Position numbers and translations under genes: made by a program
Notes under the pieces: model-generated
Database searches by the model: none
Told to the model about the DNA's origin: nothing
The model's input: only the letters and a program-made list of their open reading frames with translations
In this document: positions 15,868 through 20,273 of the stretch, piece after piece
How positions within the stretch are numbered: position 1 is the first letter of the stretch
Layout: every line of letters begins with the position of its first letter
Source: an uncultured Clostridium sp.
Lineage (GTDB): Bacteria; Bacillota; Clostridia; TANB77; CAG-508
Assembly: GCA_964507565.1 (NCBI GenBank)
Contig: CAZDPV010000003.1
Location: forward strand, 27,998 to 59,997
Length of the DNA stretch: 32,000 bases
Reading direction: 5' to 3'

Positions 15868-16593
15868 TTAACCTACTAATTTTTCAGCAAGAGCAAGTTC
15901 TTCTTCACTCATGTTAAAATTTTTTCCTTTGTTTTTTATTATTAAGTGCAGATTTTCTATTTTTCTCACCTCTTTTATTGTGTTTTCAATTGGAAGTATC
16001 GTTGGAAGTGTTTCTTTTATCTTTTCATACTCTTTCTCCATCCCATCAAAGTCTTTTTCTTTGTAGTATCCTTTCCAATTATTTGAATATTTACCTAACT
16101 TTTCTAGTGCACTTAGTTGATTATTGAAATTGTTTTCTATATTCGAATCAATTGTACTCATAATTACATTTTTACCCTTTTTTATTATTTGCCCTATTGA
16201 TGTTGGAATTAAATCAAATTGCATTGCTTTGTTTATTGCAAAGTCTAATACATTAGAAATACTATCAATCATTCCTCCGTTTTTTATTGCAGTATGTGCC
16301 TGATTTATATTGTCAAACTTTCCCGTTACAATTCCTAGTGCACTTTTTCCTAATTCGCTTGCTGATTGTATAGCTTGTTTTACTCCTGCTTGAAATCCAT
16401 TTTTAAGAATTGCGTCTTTTATATCAATTACTTGTCCTTCTATTAAATTTGGTAGTAATGCTCTTATTCCTGTATTTAAACCTACATTTATTATTTTTCC
16501 CATGGTTGATTCTAAAAAGGAATTTTGTTCTTTTCCAATGTTCATTCTATTTTCTACATTAAGTGTATTTGCTAAATTATTTTCTAGCTCCAC
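15868..16593 (-). CDS. Hypothetical soluble protein, last gene of the gyrB-gyrA insert
   Basis: 241 aa, GTG start with AAAGGAG SD, overlaps the upstream ParA-like gene by 17 nt. No TM helix, signal peptide or motif I recognise. Confidence 0.6.
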   Translation of the reverse strand: MELENNLANTLNVENRMNIGKEQNSFLESTMGKIINVGLNTGIRALLPNLIEGQVIDIKDAILKNGFQAGVKQAIQSASELGKSALGIVTGKFDNINQAHTAIKNGGMIDSISNVLDFAINKAMQFDLIPTSIGQIIKKGKNVIMSTIDSNIENNFNNQLSALEKLGKYSNNWKGYYKEKDFDGMEKEYEKIKETLPTILPIENTIKEVRKIENLHLIIKNKGKNFNMSEEELALAEKLVG

Positions 16594-17872
16594 TTTTATT
16601 CTCCTTTCGATCTAATATTTGTTTTCTTATTTTATCTAAATCTTGTTGAATTTCTTTTATTTTATTTGAATTTTTATTTATTGCTAAATCGTAATAATCA
16701 TTCAATTTTATTTTACCTAATATTATATATCTTTTAAATATATTTTTTAAAACTTCATCATCTACAGATTTATCAGTGCATTTATTAAAAACTATATTAA
16801 ATGTATCTTCTTGAATACCCCATTCTTTAGTGTATATCTCTAATAATTTTTGTGCTTTTTTTATCTCTAATATATTAGCTCCTGATATAAATATAGATTG
16901 ATTTGCCATTTCTATCAATTCTCTTGTGTAATCTAAGAAACATTCTGATGATGTATCGATTATTATTAAATCATATTCCTTTTTTATTTTATTTATTAAA
17001 CTTTTGATTTTCGTTGGGTTTATTTGATATTTAGAATCGAATATCAAATTTATTCCAGAGATTAAATCGACATTGTATTTTGTCTTTATTATAAAATCAA
17101 AAATATTCATGTCTTCCTGATTTAAATTATTATTTTTCATGTTTTTTTGAATTTTTTTCGAATATTCTTTCACACCTAATAATGTATGTAAACTATTATT
17201 TAACACATCAAAATCAATTATTATAATTTTTTGATTTTTTATGTTATTTGCAAATGTAATTGAAAAAATACTTTTCCCTATTCCATTAGGTCCTAATATT
17301 GTTAATATTTTTCCTTCGTGTGACTCTTCTTTAAAAAAATTATTTATAGGAATTGTTTTTTTATTATATATATTATTTATTTTATTTTCTATTTTATTTT
17401 CTGATTTATTATTTGATTTATTTTCTATTTTATTTTTTGATTTATTATTTATTTTAATTTCTGATTTATTGTTTATTTTATTTTCTGATTTATTATTTAT
17501 TTTAATTTTTTTAGATTTATTTATTTTTACTTTATTGTTTTTTTCATTTATTATTTTTATTATTTCTTCCGTTTCTATTTTTTCATATATTTTGTATACT
17601 TGTATTTTTATTTCTTTATTTTTTGATAATAATATTATTTTTATTTTATTATTTATTTTTTTTATCTTATTAACTAATTCTTCTGTTTTAATATCTCCTG
17701 GTAATGTATCTTCAATTATTATAAAATCAATATTTTTATTATATTCTAGGAATTCAATTACTCCTTCTTTATATTGAATATCATTGCATTGTACATTTAT
17801 ATTTTTTTCCTTTAATTCTTTATTTATTTTTATATTTCCTATTGCTGTTATAACTGAACTAATTTTCCTCAC
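16577..17872 (-). CDS. Pseudo-receiver domain + repeat linker + ParA/MinD-type ATPase (TadZ/CpaE-like architecture)
   Basis: N-terminal ~105 aa has a CheY-like beta/alpha pattern (DFIIIEDTLPG, KIILLS) but lacks the acidic pair. The middle is NKSENKIN-type repeats. C-terminal P-loop ILTILGPNGIGKSIFS and DLIIIDTSS, typical of ParA/MinD/CpaE. Start codon uncertain. Confidence 0.65.
   Translation of the reverse strand: MRKISSVITAIGNIKINKELKEKNINVQCNDIQYKEGVIEFLEYNKNIDFIIIEDTLPGDIKTEELVNKIKKINNKIKIILLSKNKEIKIQVYKIYEKIETEEIIKIINEKNNKVKINKSKKIKINNKSENKINNKSEIKINNKSKNKIENKSNNKSENKIENKINNIYNKKTIPINNFFKEESHEGKILTILGPNGIGKSIFSITFANNIKNQKIIIIDFDVLNNSLHTLLGVKEYSKKIQKNMKNNNLNQEDMNIFDFIIKTKYNVDLISGINLIFDSKYQINPTKIKSLINKIKKEYDLIIIDTSSECFLDYTRELIEMANQSIFISGANILEIKKAQKLLEIYTKEWGIQEDTFNIVFNKCTDKSVDDEVLKNIFKRYIILGKIKLNDYYDLAINKNSNKIKEIQQDLDKIRKQILDRKENKSGARK
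17363..17539 (-). repeat. In-frame imperfect ~24-bp tandem repeats encoding (N-K-S-E/K-N/I-K-I-N/E)n
   Basis: DNA repeats of tctgatttattatttattttaatt-like units. Protein reads KINNKSENKINNKSEIKINNKSKNKIENKSNNKSENKIENKINN. Confidence 0.8.
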
Positions 17873-19619
17873 CTCCTATTATTTTTTTTTCAAAATCAGC
17901 ACTTTCTATTTTTGTTAAAATATGTTCTTTTCCTACGAACATTATACATTCTCCTCTCTTTAATGAATTTATTTCAATTTTTTCTTTACTTGTTATATTT
18001 GAATATTTTTCTAATATTTTAATATTTTCTTCTTCTAAATAAAAAAACGTCTTTATTTCTGAATTGTTCAAAATACTTTTTCCATAAGTTCCATCTTCTA
18101 AGCTAAATAAATCAGATACATCTTGAGTAATTGCAACTGCACTTCCTCCATATTTTCTAATTGTTTTAAATATTTTATAAATAAAACTTGCTACTTCCTT
18201 ATTGGAAGTTACTCCTATAAGTTGCCATATCTCATCTAAATATATTGATTTTTTTATATTTCTATTTTTTTTAATTTTATCCCAAAATAAGTCTGTAAAA
18301 ATGTACATTCCATATTTAATGTTTTCCTCACCTAAATCATATATGTCTCCTATTATAAATTTATTATTTAATTTTACATTCGTGTAATTGTTAAAGAATT
18401 TCATTGAACCTTTAACAAATGGTAGTAATTTTATTTTCATTTTTCCATCTAAGATATTATATAAGTCTTCTAATAATGGCATGTCTTCAGTACTTTTAAA
18501 TTTATTATTTTTGTATAATGATGAATCTTCAAATGTTATTCCTTTATTTTTGTATATTTTTATTATTTTTTCTTCTATTATTGCTTTTTCTTCTTCTTCT
18601 AGTTTTCCAAAAATTAAATTAAAGAATCCAATTATTTTATTTATTTTTGTTGCCAAATATCCTTTTTGATTATCTTCTAAGCTTTCCTCTCTTATATCAA
18701 ATACATTTATGAAAGTGTTTGAATTTGGACCTATTTTTATTATCGTTCCATTTAATTCTTTTCCTATGTTTGTGTATTCTCTGTCTGGATCAATAACAAA
18801 TTGCTCAATTCCATATAATGCATACCTTAAAATCATTAATTTTGTAAAAAACGATTTTCCAGATCCTGATGTTCCAAATATGCACATATTTGAATTTTTA
18901 TATTTTTCTTTGTTATATTTATCTATAAATACTAATGAATCATTATAATTATTTATTCCAATAAATATTCCCGTATCATCAAATATCGATGATGATATAA
19001 ATGGATATGTTGCTGGGATTGAACTTGTTAGAATATTTCTTTTTGCAACATTTTTTATATCAATATTATTTTGCATTAGTGGTAAACATGTTTTATATGA
19101 TTGTTCTTGTCTAAAAAAAGCTCTTTTAGGAGTTAATCCTTGACTTCTTAGTAATCCTTCTATTTTATTTATCTTATCTTCTATTTCTTTTTTATCTTTT
19201 GAAAATGTTGTTATATATGTATATACATAATACAGTTCTTCATTATTTATTTGTATTTCTTTTCTAATATATTTAGCATCATTATATGTAAAAGCTGCAA
19301 TTTCAATATCCTGTCTATTTTGATCTTTTCTTTGCAAATCAACTCCAACATTTCCTATATTATAGGTTAAGTCTTTTATAATTTTGTATGTATCTTGCTT
19401 CTCATAATATATCGATATATAAAGATTTTCATTTGTTTCTATGATATTTTTAAAAATTAAATCATTTTGTTCTCTAATATAGTTTACTACAATTAAAGAT
19501 GAGTACAAAATTCCATCAATTTCTATATATCTTGGATTATTTAAGTCAATATAACTTGGACTTAAATAATCCGCTTTACTAAAAATTCCTCCTACATAAC
19601 TATTATCTATGCAAATCAC
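17859..19619 (-). CDS. VirB4-family T4SS ATPase, ATPase-containing portion
   Basis: 586 aa. Walker A IFGTSGSGKSFFTK, Walker B SIYLDEIWQL (DExW), IRKYGGSAVAITQDVSD. The N-terminal part (YIEIDGILYSSLIVVNYIRE) resembles the mid-region of Tn916 Orf16/TcpF. Start codon uncertain. Confidence 0.85.
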   Translation of the reverse strand: MICIDNSYVGGIFSKADYLSPSYIDLNNPRYIEIDGILYSSLIVVNYIREQNDLIFKNIIETNENLYISIYYEKQDTYKIIKDLTYNIGNVGVDLQRKDQNRQDIEIAAFTYNDAKYIRKEIQINNEELYYVYTYITTFSKDKKEIEDKINKIEGLLRSQGLTPKRAFFRQEQSYKTCLPLMQNNIDIKNVAKRNILTSSIPATYPFISSSIFDDTGIFIGINNYNDSLVFIDKYNKEKYKNSNMCIFGTSGSGKSFFTKLMILRYALYGIEQFVIDPDREYTNIGKELNGTIIKIGPNSNTFINVFDIREESLEDNQKGYLATKINKIIGFFNLIFGKLEEEEKAIIEEKIIKIYKNKGITFEDSSLYKNNKFKSTEDMPLLEDLYNILDGKMKIKLLPFVKGSMKFFNNYTNVKLNNKFIIGDIYDLGEENIKYGMYIFTDLFWDKIKKNRNIKKSIYLDEIWQLIGVTSNKEVASFIYKIFKTIRKYGGSAVAITQDVSDLFSLEDGTYGKSILNNSEIKTFFYLEEENIKILEKYSNITSKEKIEINSLKRGECIMFVGKEHILTKIESADFEKKIIGGEEN

Positions 19620-19635
19620 CTCTTACGTTTATTCT

Positions 19636-20166: not shown

Positions 20167-20187
20167 TTTCTCTCCTTTCTATTTTCT

Positions 20188-20216
20188 ATAATACACTAGT
20201 TTCCATAAAATGTCAA
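20188..20216 (-). promoter_or_regulatory. Sigma-A-type promoter of the 4-gene insert operon
   Basis: On the - strand: TTGACA (20216-20211), 17-nt spacer, TATTAT (20193-20188), about 20 nt upstream of the SD/ATG at 20166. Confidence 0.65.
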
Positions 20217-20241
20217 CAAAAATCGTTCGTCAAAATTCGAC

Positions 20242-20273
20242 AAAATCAGCAATATCAATATATTGCTGATTTT
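20242..20273 (-). terminator. gyrB intrinsic terminator (perfect 14-bp hairpin)
   Basis: AAAATCAGCAATAT-caat-ATATTGCTGATTTT. On the - strand the 3' arm ends in TTTT. Lies 55 nt downstream of the gyrB stop. Confidence 0.75.

Follow-up and report, generated by a model that had tools for sequence, protein, structure and literature searches.

A putative chromosomally fixed type IV secretion system encoded on both sides of gyrA in uncultured gut Clostridia

Introduction

What is encoded by four tightly packed genes lying between gyrB and gyrA, two genes at the heart of chromosome maintenance, is the question raised by a 32,000-nucleotide stretch of DNA from an uncultured Clostridium sp. (contig CAZDPV010000003.1, positions 27,998 to 59,997; the whole stretch is hereafter called the window). 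In a metagenome-assembled Firmicute genome with about 25% GC, the window comprises the region around the replication origin, and its minus strand carries, in this order, dnaA, dnaN, recF, gyrB, the four genes (designated O1 to O4) and gyrA. In an original prediction made from the letters of the window, the four genes had been taken for an accessory-looking, recently inserted operon. The evidence presented here points instead to the cytoplasmic part, for energising and positioning, of a type IV secretion system (T4SS) that is fixed in the chromosome, inherited vertically and derived from a conjugative element of monoderm bacteria (MPF_FATA type). With a probability of roughly 0.8, the locus is best read as an exapted, relaxase-less, pilus-forming monoderm T4SS of low-GC gut Clostridia.

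Results

O1 and O2 correspond to the two parts of a VirB4 ATPase

O1 (19636-20166, minus strand, 176 amino acids (aa)) is predicted to be a stand-alone VirB4 N-terminal domain protein of the TrsD type, and O2 (17859-19619, minus strand, 586 aa) the body of a VirB4/TrsE-type T4SS ATPase. For both proteins the best-scoring curated family was the VirB4 profile NF045971 (752 positions, cut-off 325 bits), to which O1 was aligned at positions 1-170 and O2 at positions 188-731 with a score of 301 bits. Because the profile positions are divided between them in this manner, O1 and O2 represent one VirB4 split in two. O1 also matched TIGR00929 (VirB4) and carried a precomputed Pfam assignment to PF26593 (TraC-like). 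In O2 the Pfam domains P-loop_TraG (70.6 bits, cut-off 25.8), AAA_10 and DUF87 were detected, its profile matched the solved C-terminal ATPase domain of VirB4 (4AG5) with an E value of 1.7e-50, and the residues of Walker A (GTSGSGKS, G249-S256) and Walker B (DE, D462-E463) were invariant. Both proteins were furthermore aligned collinearly to a single full-length VirB4 of 849 aa, O1 to its N-terminal part; this protein, which is encoded in a mobile element (locus L090, metagenome contig SRR29457793_34055) and shows 41-43% identity, is the nearest full-length VirB4.

The search with O2 yielded over 5,900 homologs, the top 120 of which were without exception of the short form. In a comparison with 1.84 billion representative proteins, the short-form family (43-65% identity) was set apart, followed by VirB4 proteins of 800-900 aa with at most 36% identity; VirB4 proteins of plasmids reached at most 33% identity to O2, those of staphylococcal and Bacillus plasmids 27-28%. 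O1 was present in 77 of the 80 related loci described below, and the O1-O2 spacer varied in length between species, with -4 nt at one extreme and over 1,200 nt at the other. Since the short form is conserved, the spacer varies and both halves are under purifying selection, the split of VirB4 is not regarded as damage. O1-like open reading frames (ORFs) adjoin O2-like ORFs on plasmids of Butyrivibrio, Bacillus and staphylococci as well; the region concerned on Butyrivibrio pCY186 is a plasmid T4SS cluster of the usual kind, in part decayed. In the pGO1 subclass of monoderm T4SSs, a free-standing VirB4 N-domain protein goes by the name of TrsD; in Patescibacteria such a protein is the most frequent partner of VirB4 (PMC12102498).

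A partner operon beyond gyrA encodes further T4SS components

Beyond gyrA and a pair of DnaD- and DnaC-like genes, four further T4SS parts are encoded by a convergent operon on the plus strand. The first gene (7901-9565, plus strand) encodes T4CP554, a VirD4-type coupling protein with Pfam matches to TrwB_AAD_bind and TraG-D_C above the cut-off, two N-terminal hydrophobic segments and the Walker A sequence GCIGSGKTS; its median identity in relatives was 61%, and it was 36% identical to the coupling protein of L090. The second gene (9546-9881, plus strand) encodes a VirB2-like pilin of 111 aa with a signal peptide and two hydrophobic helices joined by an invariant KFSFGDEE loop, in line with the signal peptide, helix pair and basic loop of VirB2 pilins. 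Among 30 orthologs of the pilin, 29 matched PF18895 (T4SS_pilin) and 12 matched PF04956 (TrbC/VirB2).

The third gene (9891-10754, plus strand) encodes U287, a polytopic membrane protein with five to six hydrophobic segments. It is considered VirB6-like with moderate confidence, on the basis of matches of 4 of its 28 orthologs to PF04610 (TrbL/VirB6, best E 4.5e-4) and a weak similarity to a 316-aa protein of L090. Directly after it lies the gene for o92 (10787-11065, plus strand), a protein of 92 aa with two transmembrane segments that resembles VirB3 (PrgI/TcpE). PrgI and TcpE are the Gram-positive equivalents of VirB3; of 14 orthologs of o92, 6 matched PF12666 (PrgI) and 4 matched PF12648 (TcpE). 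The protein is conserved at 56-72% in relatives, where it too is encoded directly after U287, and a homolog is encoded immediately upstream of the full-length VirB4 in L090; no match was obtained in the comparison with plasmids. The conserved ORF of o92 lies below usual gene-calling attention and had not been listed before.

Judged from these assignments, the core looks complete for a monoderm system (VirB2, VirB3, VirB4, VirB6 and VirD4, together with two family-specific proteins), and it is chromosomally fixed, intact and strongly constrained. Among the ORFs of the window that were scanned, no match to relaxase, MobC or cell-wall hydrolase families was obtained. No homolog of the relaxase, MobC or M23 peptidase of L090 was found in the window or in 88 related loci (1.5 Mb), and no recognisable origin of transfer (oriT) was found in the window or in the 1.5 Mb of related flanks.

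The locus is syntenic and under purifying selection

A survey with one genome per species detected relatives in at least 559 species-level genomes, and synteny was assessed from the 80 best loci, all from metagenome-assembled genomes of uncultured gut 'Clostridia' (including Clostridium sp. CAG:793 and CAG:567). gyrB was located upstream in all 64 loci with enough flanking sequence, gyrA downstream in 57 of 59, and both in 54; the partner operon was present wherever the flank of a related locus reached it. The median identity to the window was 70% for O2, 67% for dnaA and 66% for recF, and the ORFs were intact in 80 species. The ratio of nonsynonymous to synonymous substitution rates (dN/dS, median over closely related pairs) was 0.049 for O2, 0.12 for O1, 0.22 for O3, 0.12 for O4 and 0.08 for the pilin, in comparison with 0.046 for gyrB and 0.032 for gyrA. 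In a deeper relative (gyrB 67% and O2 51% identical), the order dnaA-dnaN-recF-gyrB-[two extra genes]-O1-O2-x-x-O4-gyrA was found, together with the partner operon.

The GC content at third codon positions (GC3) of O1 to O4 (0.11-0.18) lay between the extremes shown by the flanking genes (0.09-0.22), leaving no foreign signature in composition. The total GC of O1 to O3 was 0.18-0.23 against 0.32 for gyrB and gyrA; the low total GC of O1 to O4 is explained by proteins rich in lysine, asparagine and isoleucine, an effect seen at the first two codon positions and shared with recF. As the original prediction had noted, there are no direct repeats at the two borders; no integrase gene is adjacent, and the single integrase fragment (1837-2166) lies 13 kb away. 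The proposal of a recent accessory insertion is thus contradicted by the same four genes at the same position in the gyrB-gyrA interval of relatives, with housekeeping-like conservation and GC3 like that of the flanks, and in annotation the four genes should not be marked as a genomic island. Two contigs, L087 (16547-21640) and L086 (18045-21477), encode an identical VirB4 protein (P0511) and differ downstream of gyrA, where L086 has the operon for coupling protein, pilin, VirB6 and VirB3, and L087 an island that codes for an integrase, an N6 methyltransferase and a SocA_Panacea protein.

O3 and O4 are long-standing members of the T4SS family

O3 (16577-17872, minus strand, 431 aa) is TadZ/CpaE-like according to fold and profile matches; in it, a low-complexity linker of variable make-up joins a receiver-like N-terminal domain to an ATPase domain of the ParA/MinD family. 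Its AlphaFold2 model had a predicted local distance difference test score (pLDDT) of 70 overall and of 80-90 in both folded domains. The top Foldseek match, extending over both domains, was 3FKQ (E 2.8e-11), the TadZ protein by which pili are localised in Eubacterium rectale; FleN, MinD and ParA came next. Profile matches in the PDB were PF-32, delta and MinD, and homologs of O3 carried PF13614 and PF01656. The Walker A of O3 reads GxNGxGKS, without the signature lysine. The linker is encoded by a periodic repeat of 12/24/36 nt (17341-17520, minus strand, direct-repeat families D1-D9; coding KSxNKINN); it is rich in lysine and asparagine, free to vary in length and sequence between species, and disordered in the AlphaFold2 model. 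As judged from the model, O3 has the two-domain build of TadZ/CpaE, with an atypical receiver and an atypical ParA/MinD ATPase. Neither TadA/CpaF, TadB/C nor a Flp pilin was found beside O3 among the ORFs of the window that were scanned.

O4 (15868-16593, minus strand, 241 aa) is a predicted all-helical accessory protein specific to this T4SS family. It has no Pfam domain, a profile search of PDB sequences returned nothing below E 0.1, and its AlphaFold2 model, of moderate quality (pLDDT 64.5), gave no Foldseek match below E 0.27. Its 819 homologs were all of about 240 aa and none had a Pfam domain. Remote homologs of O4 are encoded at the ends of VirB4 operons in distant lineages (hhalign probability 98.4% for locus L088 and 95% for locus L085).

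These two loci (L085, 9654-15728; L088, 9522-16119) belong to two distant chromosomal lineages with TrsD-VirB4 operons, in which genes for a VirB11/TadA-like ATPase and for a membrane protein with weak likeness to GspF come after the homolog of O3, and the O4 homolog is last. The arrangement is that of a hybrid T4SS/Tad-like operon, and in L088 the operon also ends beside gyrA. Because homologs of O3 and O4 recur in such distant TrsD-VirB4 operons, both proteins are considered long-standing members of the T4SS family and not passengers.

A mobile relative carries a similar gene set

In L090, the mobile element (5426-17601) encodes a relaxase, MobC, a PF18895 pilin, a coupling protein, an M23 peptidase, a VirB6-like protein and a VirB3-like protein whose gene lies directly before that of VirB4. 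The VirB3-like protein, VirB4, the PF18895 pilin, the coupling protein and the VirB6-like protein are shared with the system of the window, whereas the relaxase, MobC, the M23 peptidase, ParA, the unsplit VirB4 and a GC content of 35% set L090 apart. L090 plausibly resembles the mobile ancestor of the system described here. Should the element reside in a Firmicute, pilins of the VirB2 type would also be present among Gram-positive conjugative elements. The element adjoins a Tad locus.

The four genes probably form an operon of their own

The close packing proposed for the four co-directional genes, with a gap of 16 nt and overlaps of 14 nt and 17 nt at the successive junctions, was present in full. 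An intrinsic-terminator-like hairpin (20242-20273, minus strand) lies 55 nt downstream of the gyrB stop codon, exactly where it had been placed, with a perfect stem of 14-15 bp, a 4-nt loop and a U-rich stretch after it (dG -16.3 kcal/mol, z = -5.4 against shuffled sequences). The terminator scan did not call this hairpin because the T-run is partly within the stem. The sigma-70-type promoter TTGACA-17-TATTAT (20188-20216, minus strand) was likewise present, with 11 of 12 matches, and was the best scorer of 77 promoter-like sites in 10 kb; the scan as such was not above chance, as 70 sites were expected from shuffled sequence. Both signals are considered credible not because of the scan score but because they are conserved in relatives: of 65 related gyrB-O1 spacers, most had a strong hairpin immediately 3' of gyrB, and 44 had a TTGACA-16/18-TAnnnT site upstream of O1. 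The view that the four genes form their own transcription unit is upheld by this conservation, and O1 to O4 are read from the sequence as an operon with a conserved promoter, insulated from gyrB by a conserved terminator.

The O4-gyrA spacer had been predicted to lack a canonical terminator, and none was seen. What could be read from the sequence (15749-15814, minus strand) was a weak long-loop hairpin (15814-15769) with a run of seven T, overlapping the gyrA promoter; its folding was not above that of shuffled sequences (z -0.75). The gyrA promoter itself (TTGCTT-17-TATAAT, 15777-15749) has a weaker -35 element than that of relatives. Over 43 short spacers preceding gyrA in relatives, TTGCAA-17/18-TATAAT was present in 21, a conserved promoter belonging to gyrA itself, and a terminator-like hairpin in 20. 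Since about half of the relatives carry such a hairpin before gyrA, read-through into gyrA is not a conserved design; some leak of transcription into gyrA is possible in this genome.

In some relatives up to 3.3 kb of extra DNA lies between O4 and gyrA, and some gyrB-O1 spacers are 3-7 kb long; kilobases of extra DNA at one or the other position were found in L007 (13605-16956), L030 (5464-8745), L057 and L049. By comparison of these loci, the gyrB-O1 and O4-gyrA spacers tolerate insertions while the T4SS genes keep their place.

Setting of the locus in the replication-origin region

The window has identical contigs in Logan runs SRR12762285, SRR12762298 and SRR12762299, and its plus strand carries rnpA, yidC, jag and mnmE. 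gyrB (20329-22245, minus strand) is co-directional with O1 to O4, and gyrA (13224-15713, minus strand; an ORF of 829 aa with precomputed Pfam assignments DNA_topoisoIV and DNA_gyraseA_C; 76-87% identity in relatives) lies between the two T4SS operons. In the dnaA-dnaN spacer, eleven TTATCCACA-like DnaA boxes, seven perfect and the others with a single mismatch, are clustered at 25237-25402 (no strand assigned), and 29 such boxes were counted window-wide against 10.5 expected. This cluster is presumably oriC, about 5 kb from the O1-O4 operon. Two further perfect DnaA boxes in inverted orientation are located at the dnaN/recF junction (24003-24034).

The pair of genes between gyrA and the partner operon encodes a DnaD-domain protein (11213-12175, plus strand; PF07261 DnaB_2, TIGR01446) and a DnaC/DnaI-like loader ATPase (12196-13203, plus strand; NF005304 PRK06835, 336 bits, cut-off 215). 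The pair is syntenic in relatives and probably represents housekeeping genes that form part of the context. The recF-gyrB spacer (22246-22941) is 696 nt long with an A+T content of about 85% and has a tandem AAATAAATAATA-type repeat just 3' of recF. It also contains four exact copies of TGTGAAACAT, against 0.08 expected by chance; as a conserved element of the spacer this sequence was rejected, being not kept at that position in related loci.

Immediately upstream of the coupling protein operon, a 61-aa DUF1858 protein is encoded on the minus strand (7341-7526), and a good TAGACA-17-TATAAT promoter-like site is present between its gene and that of the coupling protein. Farther away are a gene for a LexA-like repressor with a helix-turn-helix and an S24 peptidase domain (4693-5373), and an ORF of 109 aa adjoining tRNA-Lys(CTT) (1837-2254) whose match to the phage-integrase domain is confined to the C-terminal end of that domain. 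The latter, which is the integrase fragment mentioned above, looks like the leftover of a tRNA-integrated element unrelated to the T4SS genes.

Discussion

Taken together, the gene set, the synteny and the selection on it argue for an exapted T4SS that has become a fixed part of the chromosome. In such a machine, a hexamer of VirB4 reconstituted from O1 and O2 would dock on a platform of VirB3 and VirB6 and pull pilin out of the membrane for assembly into a pilus of the conjugative type. VirB4 and the coupling protein would drive the contact-dependent transfer of a macromolecule, DNA or protein, the substrate being selected by the coupling protein, and the TadZ-like O3 might position or scaffold the machine at a defined site, by analogy with TadZ. 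Because a coupling protein has been retained, export or exchange is favoured over pure uptake. Assembly into one machine, pilus formation and transfer are all suggested by what these families do elsewhere.

Several points weigh against this interpretation. The cut-off of NF045971 (325 bits) was reached neither by O2 (301.4 bits) nor by O1 (36 bits); the shortfall is attributed to the division of VirB4 over two genes, and by this score the CD1110 family does not include the O1-O2 pair as an equivalog. The assignments to VirB6 and VirB3 are weak, a minority of orthologs matching the respective families. Neither a VirB1-like hydrolase nor a VirB8-like protein was found, though one of them is to be expected for crossing a Gram-positive wall; O4 or unlinked genes may fill this role. 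The absence of a relaxase covers about 10 kb on each side of the locus, and a relaxase could be encoded elsewhere in the genome. No regulatory motif or operator shared by the promoters of the two T4SS operons was detected. Finally, the assignment of the clade to the GTDB order TANB77 is tentative.

Among described systems, the chromosomal T4SS of Patescibacteria (candidate phyla radiation) comes closest, the likeness being one of gene set and location. The T4SS of Patescibacteria is derived from MPF_FATA, chromosomal, largely relaxase-less and mainly vertically inherited (Quinonero-Coronel et al. 2025, PMC12102498; reviewed in PMC12857230); PrgI-like VirB3, VirB6 and PF18895 VirB2-like pilins are encoded near virB4, often by dnaA, dnaN and rnpA (PMC12102498). 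Here, too, TrsD-like and VirB4 proteins, a PrgI-like VirB3, VirB6 (the last two being weak calls) and a PF18895 pilin are encoded with no relaxase nearby, and the location is again near dnaA and oriC, with dnaA, dnaN and rnpA in the window. The present system differs in its Clostridia host, in having one pilin gene and not an array, in its linked coupling protein, in the arrangement as two operons around gyrA, and in the TadZ-like ATPase and the O4 protein.

Other systems resemble it in part. The pGO1/pSK41-type Trs system of staphylococci (TrsD and TrsE, a subclass of MPF_FATA) likewise has a separate protein resembling the N-terminus of VirB4 beside a VirB4 of about 570-670 aa, but it is plasmid-borne and horizontally mobile, has a relaxase and oriT, and lacks a VirB2-type pilin. 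The CD1110-family VirB4 proteins of clostridial integrative and conjugative elements and conjugative transposons ('type IVC') share the NF045971 family and the Gram-positive envelope, but are single full-length proteins inside mobile elements. ComB of Helicobacter pylori is a domesticated DNA-uptake T4SS without a coupling protein. ComB and the Ced/Ted DNA import systems of Crenarchaeota (PMC9905601) are similarly chromosomal, domesticated conjugation machineries with VirB4-, VirB6- and VirB2-like parts and no relaxase; unlike the present system, they belong to other lineages and have no coupling protein, and an experimental demonstration of import is confined to them. The two-domain build of O3 is that of TadZ/CpaE of Tad (Flp) pili, as in 3FKQ, but O3 is encoded with VirB4 and not with TadA, TadB, TadC and Flp. 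In the literature search, no paper was found that ties TANB77 or these Clostridia to a T4SS; the 'conserved pilin' cluster of TANB77, considered as a candidate for this locus, was rejected, since it is a separate Tad locus with its own TadZ/CpaE (PMC11680825).

The main rival explanation is a chromosome-conjugating system, in which the T4SS would export DNA with the aid of an unlinked relaxase and oriT, giving Hfr-like or distributive transfer within the clade. We consider it rather unlikely. It would account for the retention of a VirD4-type coupling protein (median identity 61%), which relatives of the DNA-uptake kind usually lack (Ced, PMC9905601), and the ancestral system was conjugative, as the mobile relative L090 shows; but no relaxase, MobC or recognisable oriT was found in the window or the 1.5 Mb of related flanks, and the strictly vertical synteny gives no sign that the locus itself has moved.

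A device for handling the chromosome, in which FtsK-like and ParA-like ATPases would serve segregation or translocation and not secretion, is very unlikely. The locus lies 5 kb from the DnaA boxes, interleaved with dnaA, dnaN, recF, gyrB, gyrA and the dnaD/dnaI-like pair, and O3 is a ParA-family protein, all of which such a device would explain. It would not explain the co-conservation of a secreted VirB2-type pilin with VirB6-like and VirB3-like proteins, nor the same gene set in a relaxase-bearing mobile element, and O3 resembles the machine-positioning TadZ, not the DNA-binding Soj.

Still less probable is a decaying, non-functional relic of an old integrated conjugative element, kept through linkage to essential genes. 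In comparison with L090, the relaxase, MobC and the wall hydrolase have been lost, VirB4 is split, and the VirB11/TadA-like ATPase of the distant relatives is absent here. Decay is opposed, however, by intact ORFs in 80 species, dN/dS values of 0.05-0.22, invariant catalytic residues and a conserved promoter, and the split form of VirB4 is itself conserved and also occurs on plasmids.

That the genes are a recently acquired accessory operon or a mobile-element fragment is barely credible: their conjugative ancestry and the total GC of O1 to O3, below that of gyrB and gyrA, would fit, but the reading is refuted by synteny, the genes occupying this site in all related loci whose flanks are long enough, and is opposed by GC3 equal to that of the flanks, a low GC that follows from protein composition, and the lack of border repeats and of an adjacent integrase. 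Defence against phages by means of a HerA/FtsK-like ATPase was rejected as scarcely worth entertaining, for although O2 matches PADLOC mad8 (65 bits) and, weakly, DndH, and has a DUF87/HerA central domain, these are generic P-loop matches, the VirB4 family models score far higher (301 and 246 bits), the neighbours are T4SS parts and not nucleases or methylases, and defence islands vary between genomes while this locus is fixed.

Exapted conjugation machines are rare and informative, the known ones being ComB, Ced/Ted and the T4SS of Patescibacteria. The locus described here would be a Firmicute example, fixed by oriC throughout the history of a species-rich uncultured gut clade and equipped with a VirB2-type pilin. 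More tentatively, and with more doubt than belief, a large order of uncultured gut Clostridia with reduced genomes (probably TANB77) might possess, in the style of Patescibacteria, a relaxase-less, pilus-forming, origin-proximal T4SS; from a constraint as strong as that on gyrase, this would be a core lifestyle organelle for cell contact or uptake. According to a review of December 2025, VirB2 pilins are absent from Gram-positive T4SSs except those of Patescibacteria, which are also unique among monoderm systems in their requirement for growth and their potential for conjugative pili (PMC12857230). If the tentative proposal is true, the locus breaks the statement in that review that VirB2 pilins and growth-essential monoderm T4SSs belong to Patescibacteria alone (PMC12857230), and it could mark the Firmicute lineage or the mobile-element family that gave Patescibacteria their system. 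By way of another pilus, TANB77 has been tied to how patients respond to cancer immunotherapy (PMC11680825); should the clade be TANB77, a further conserved filament on the cell surface would matter for such work. The system would likewise be relevant to the difficulty of culturing these bacteria.

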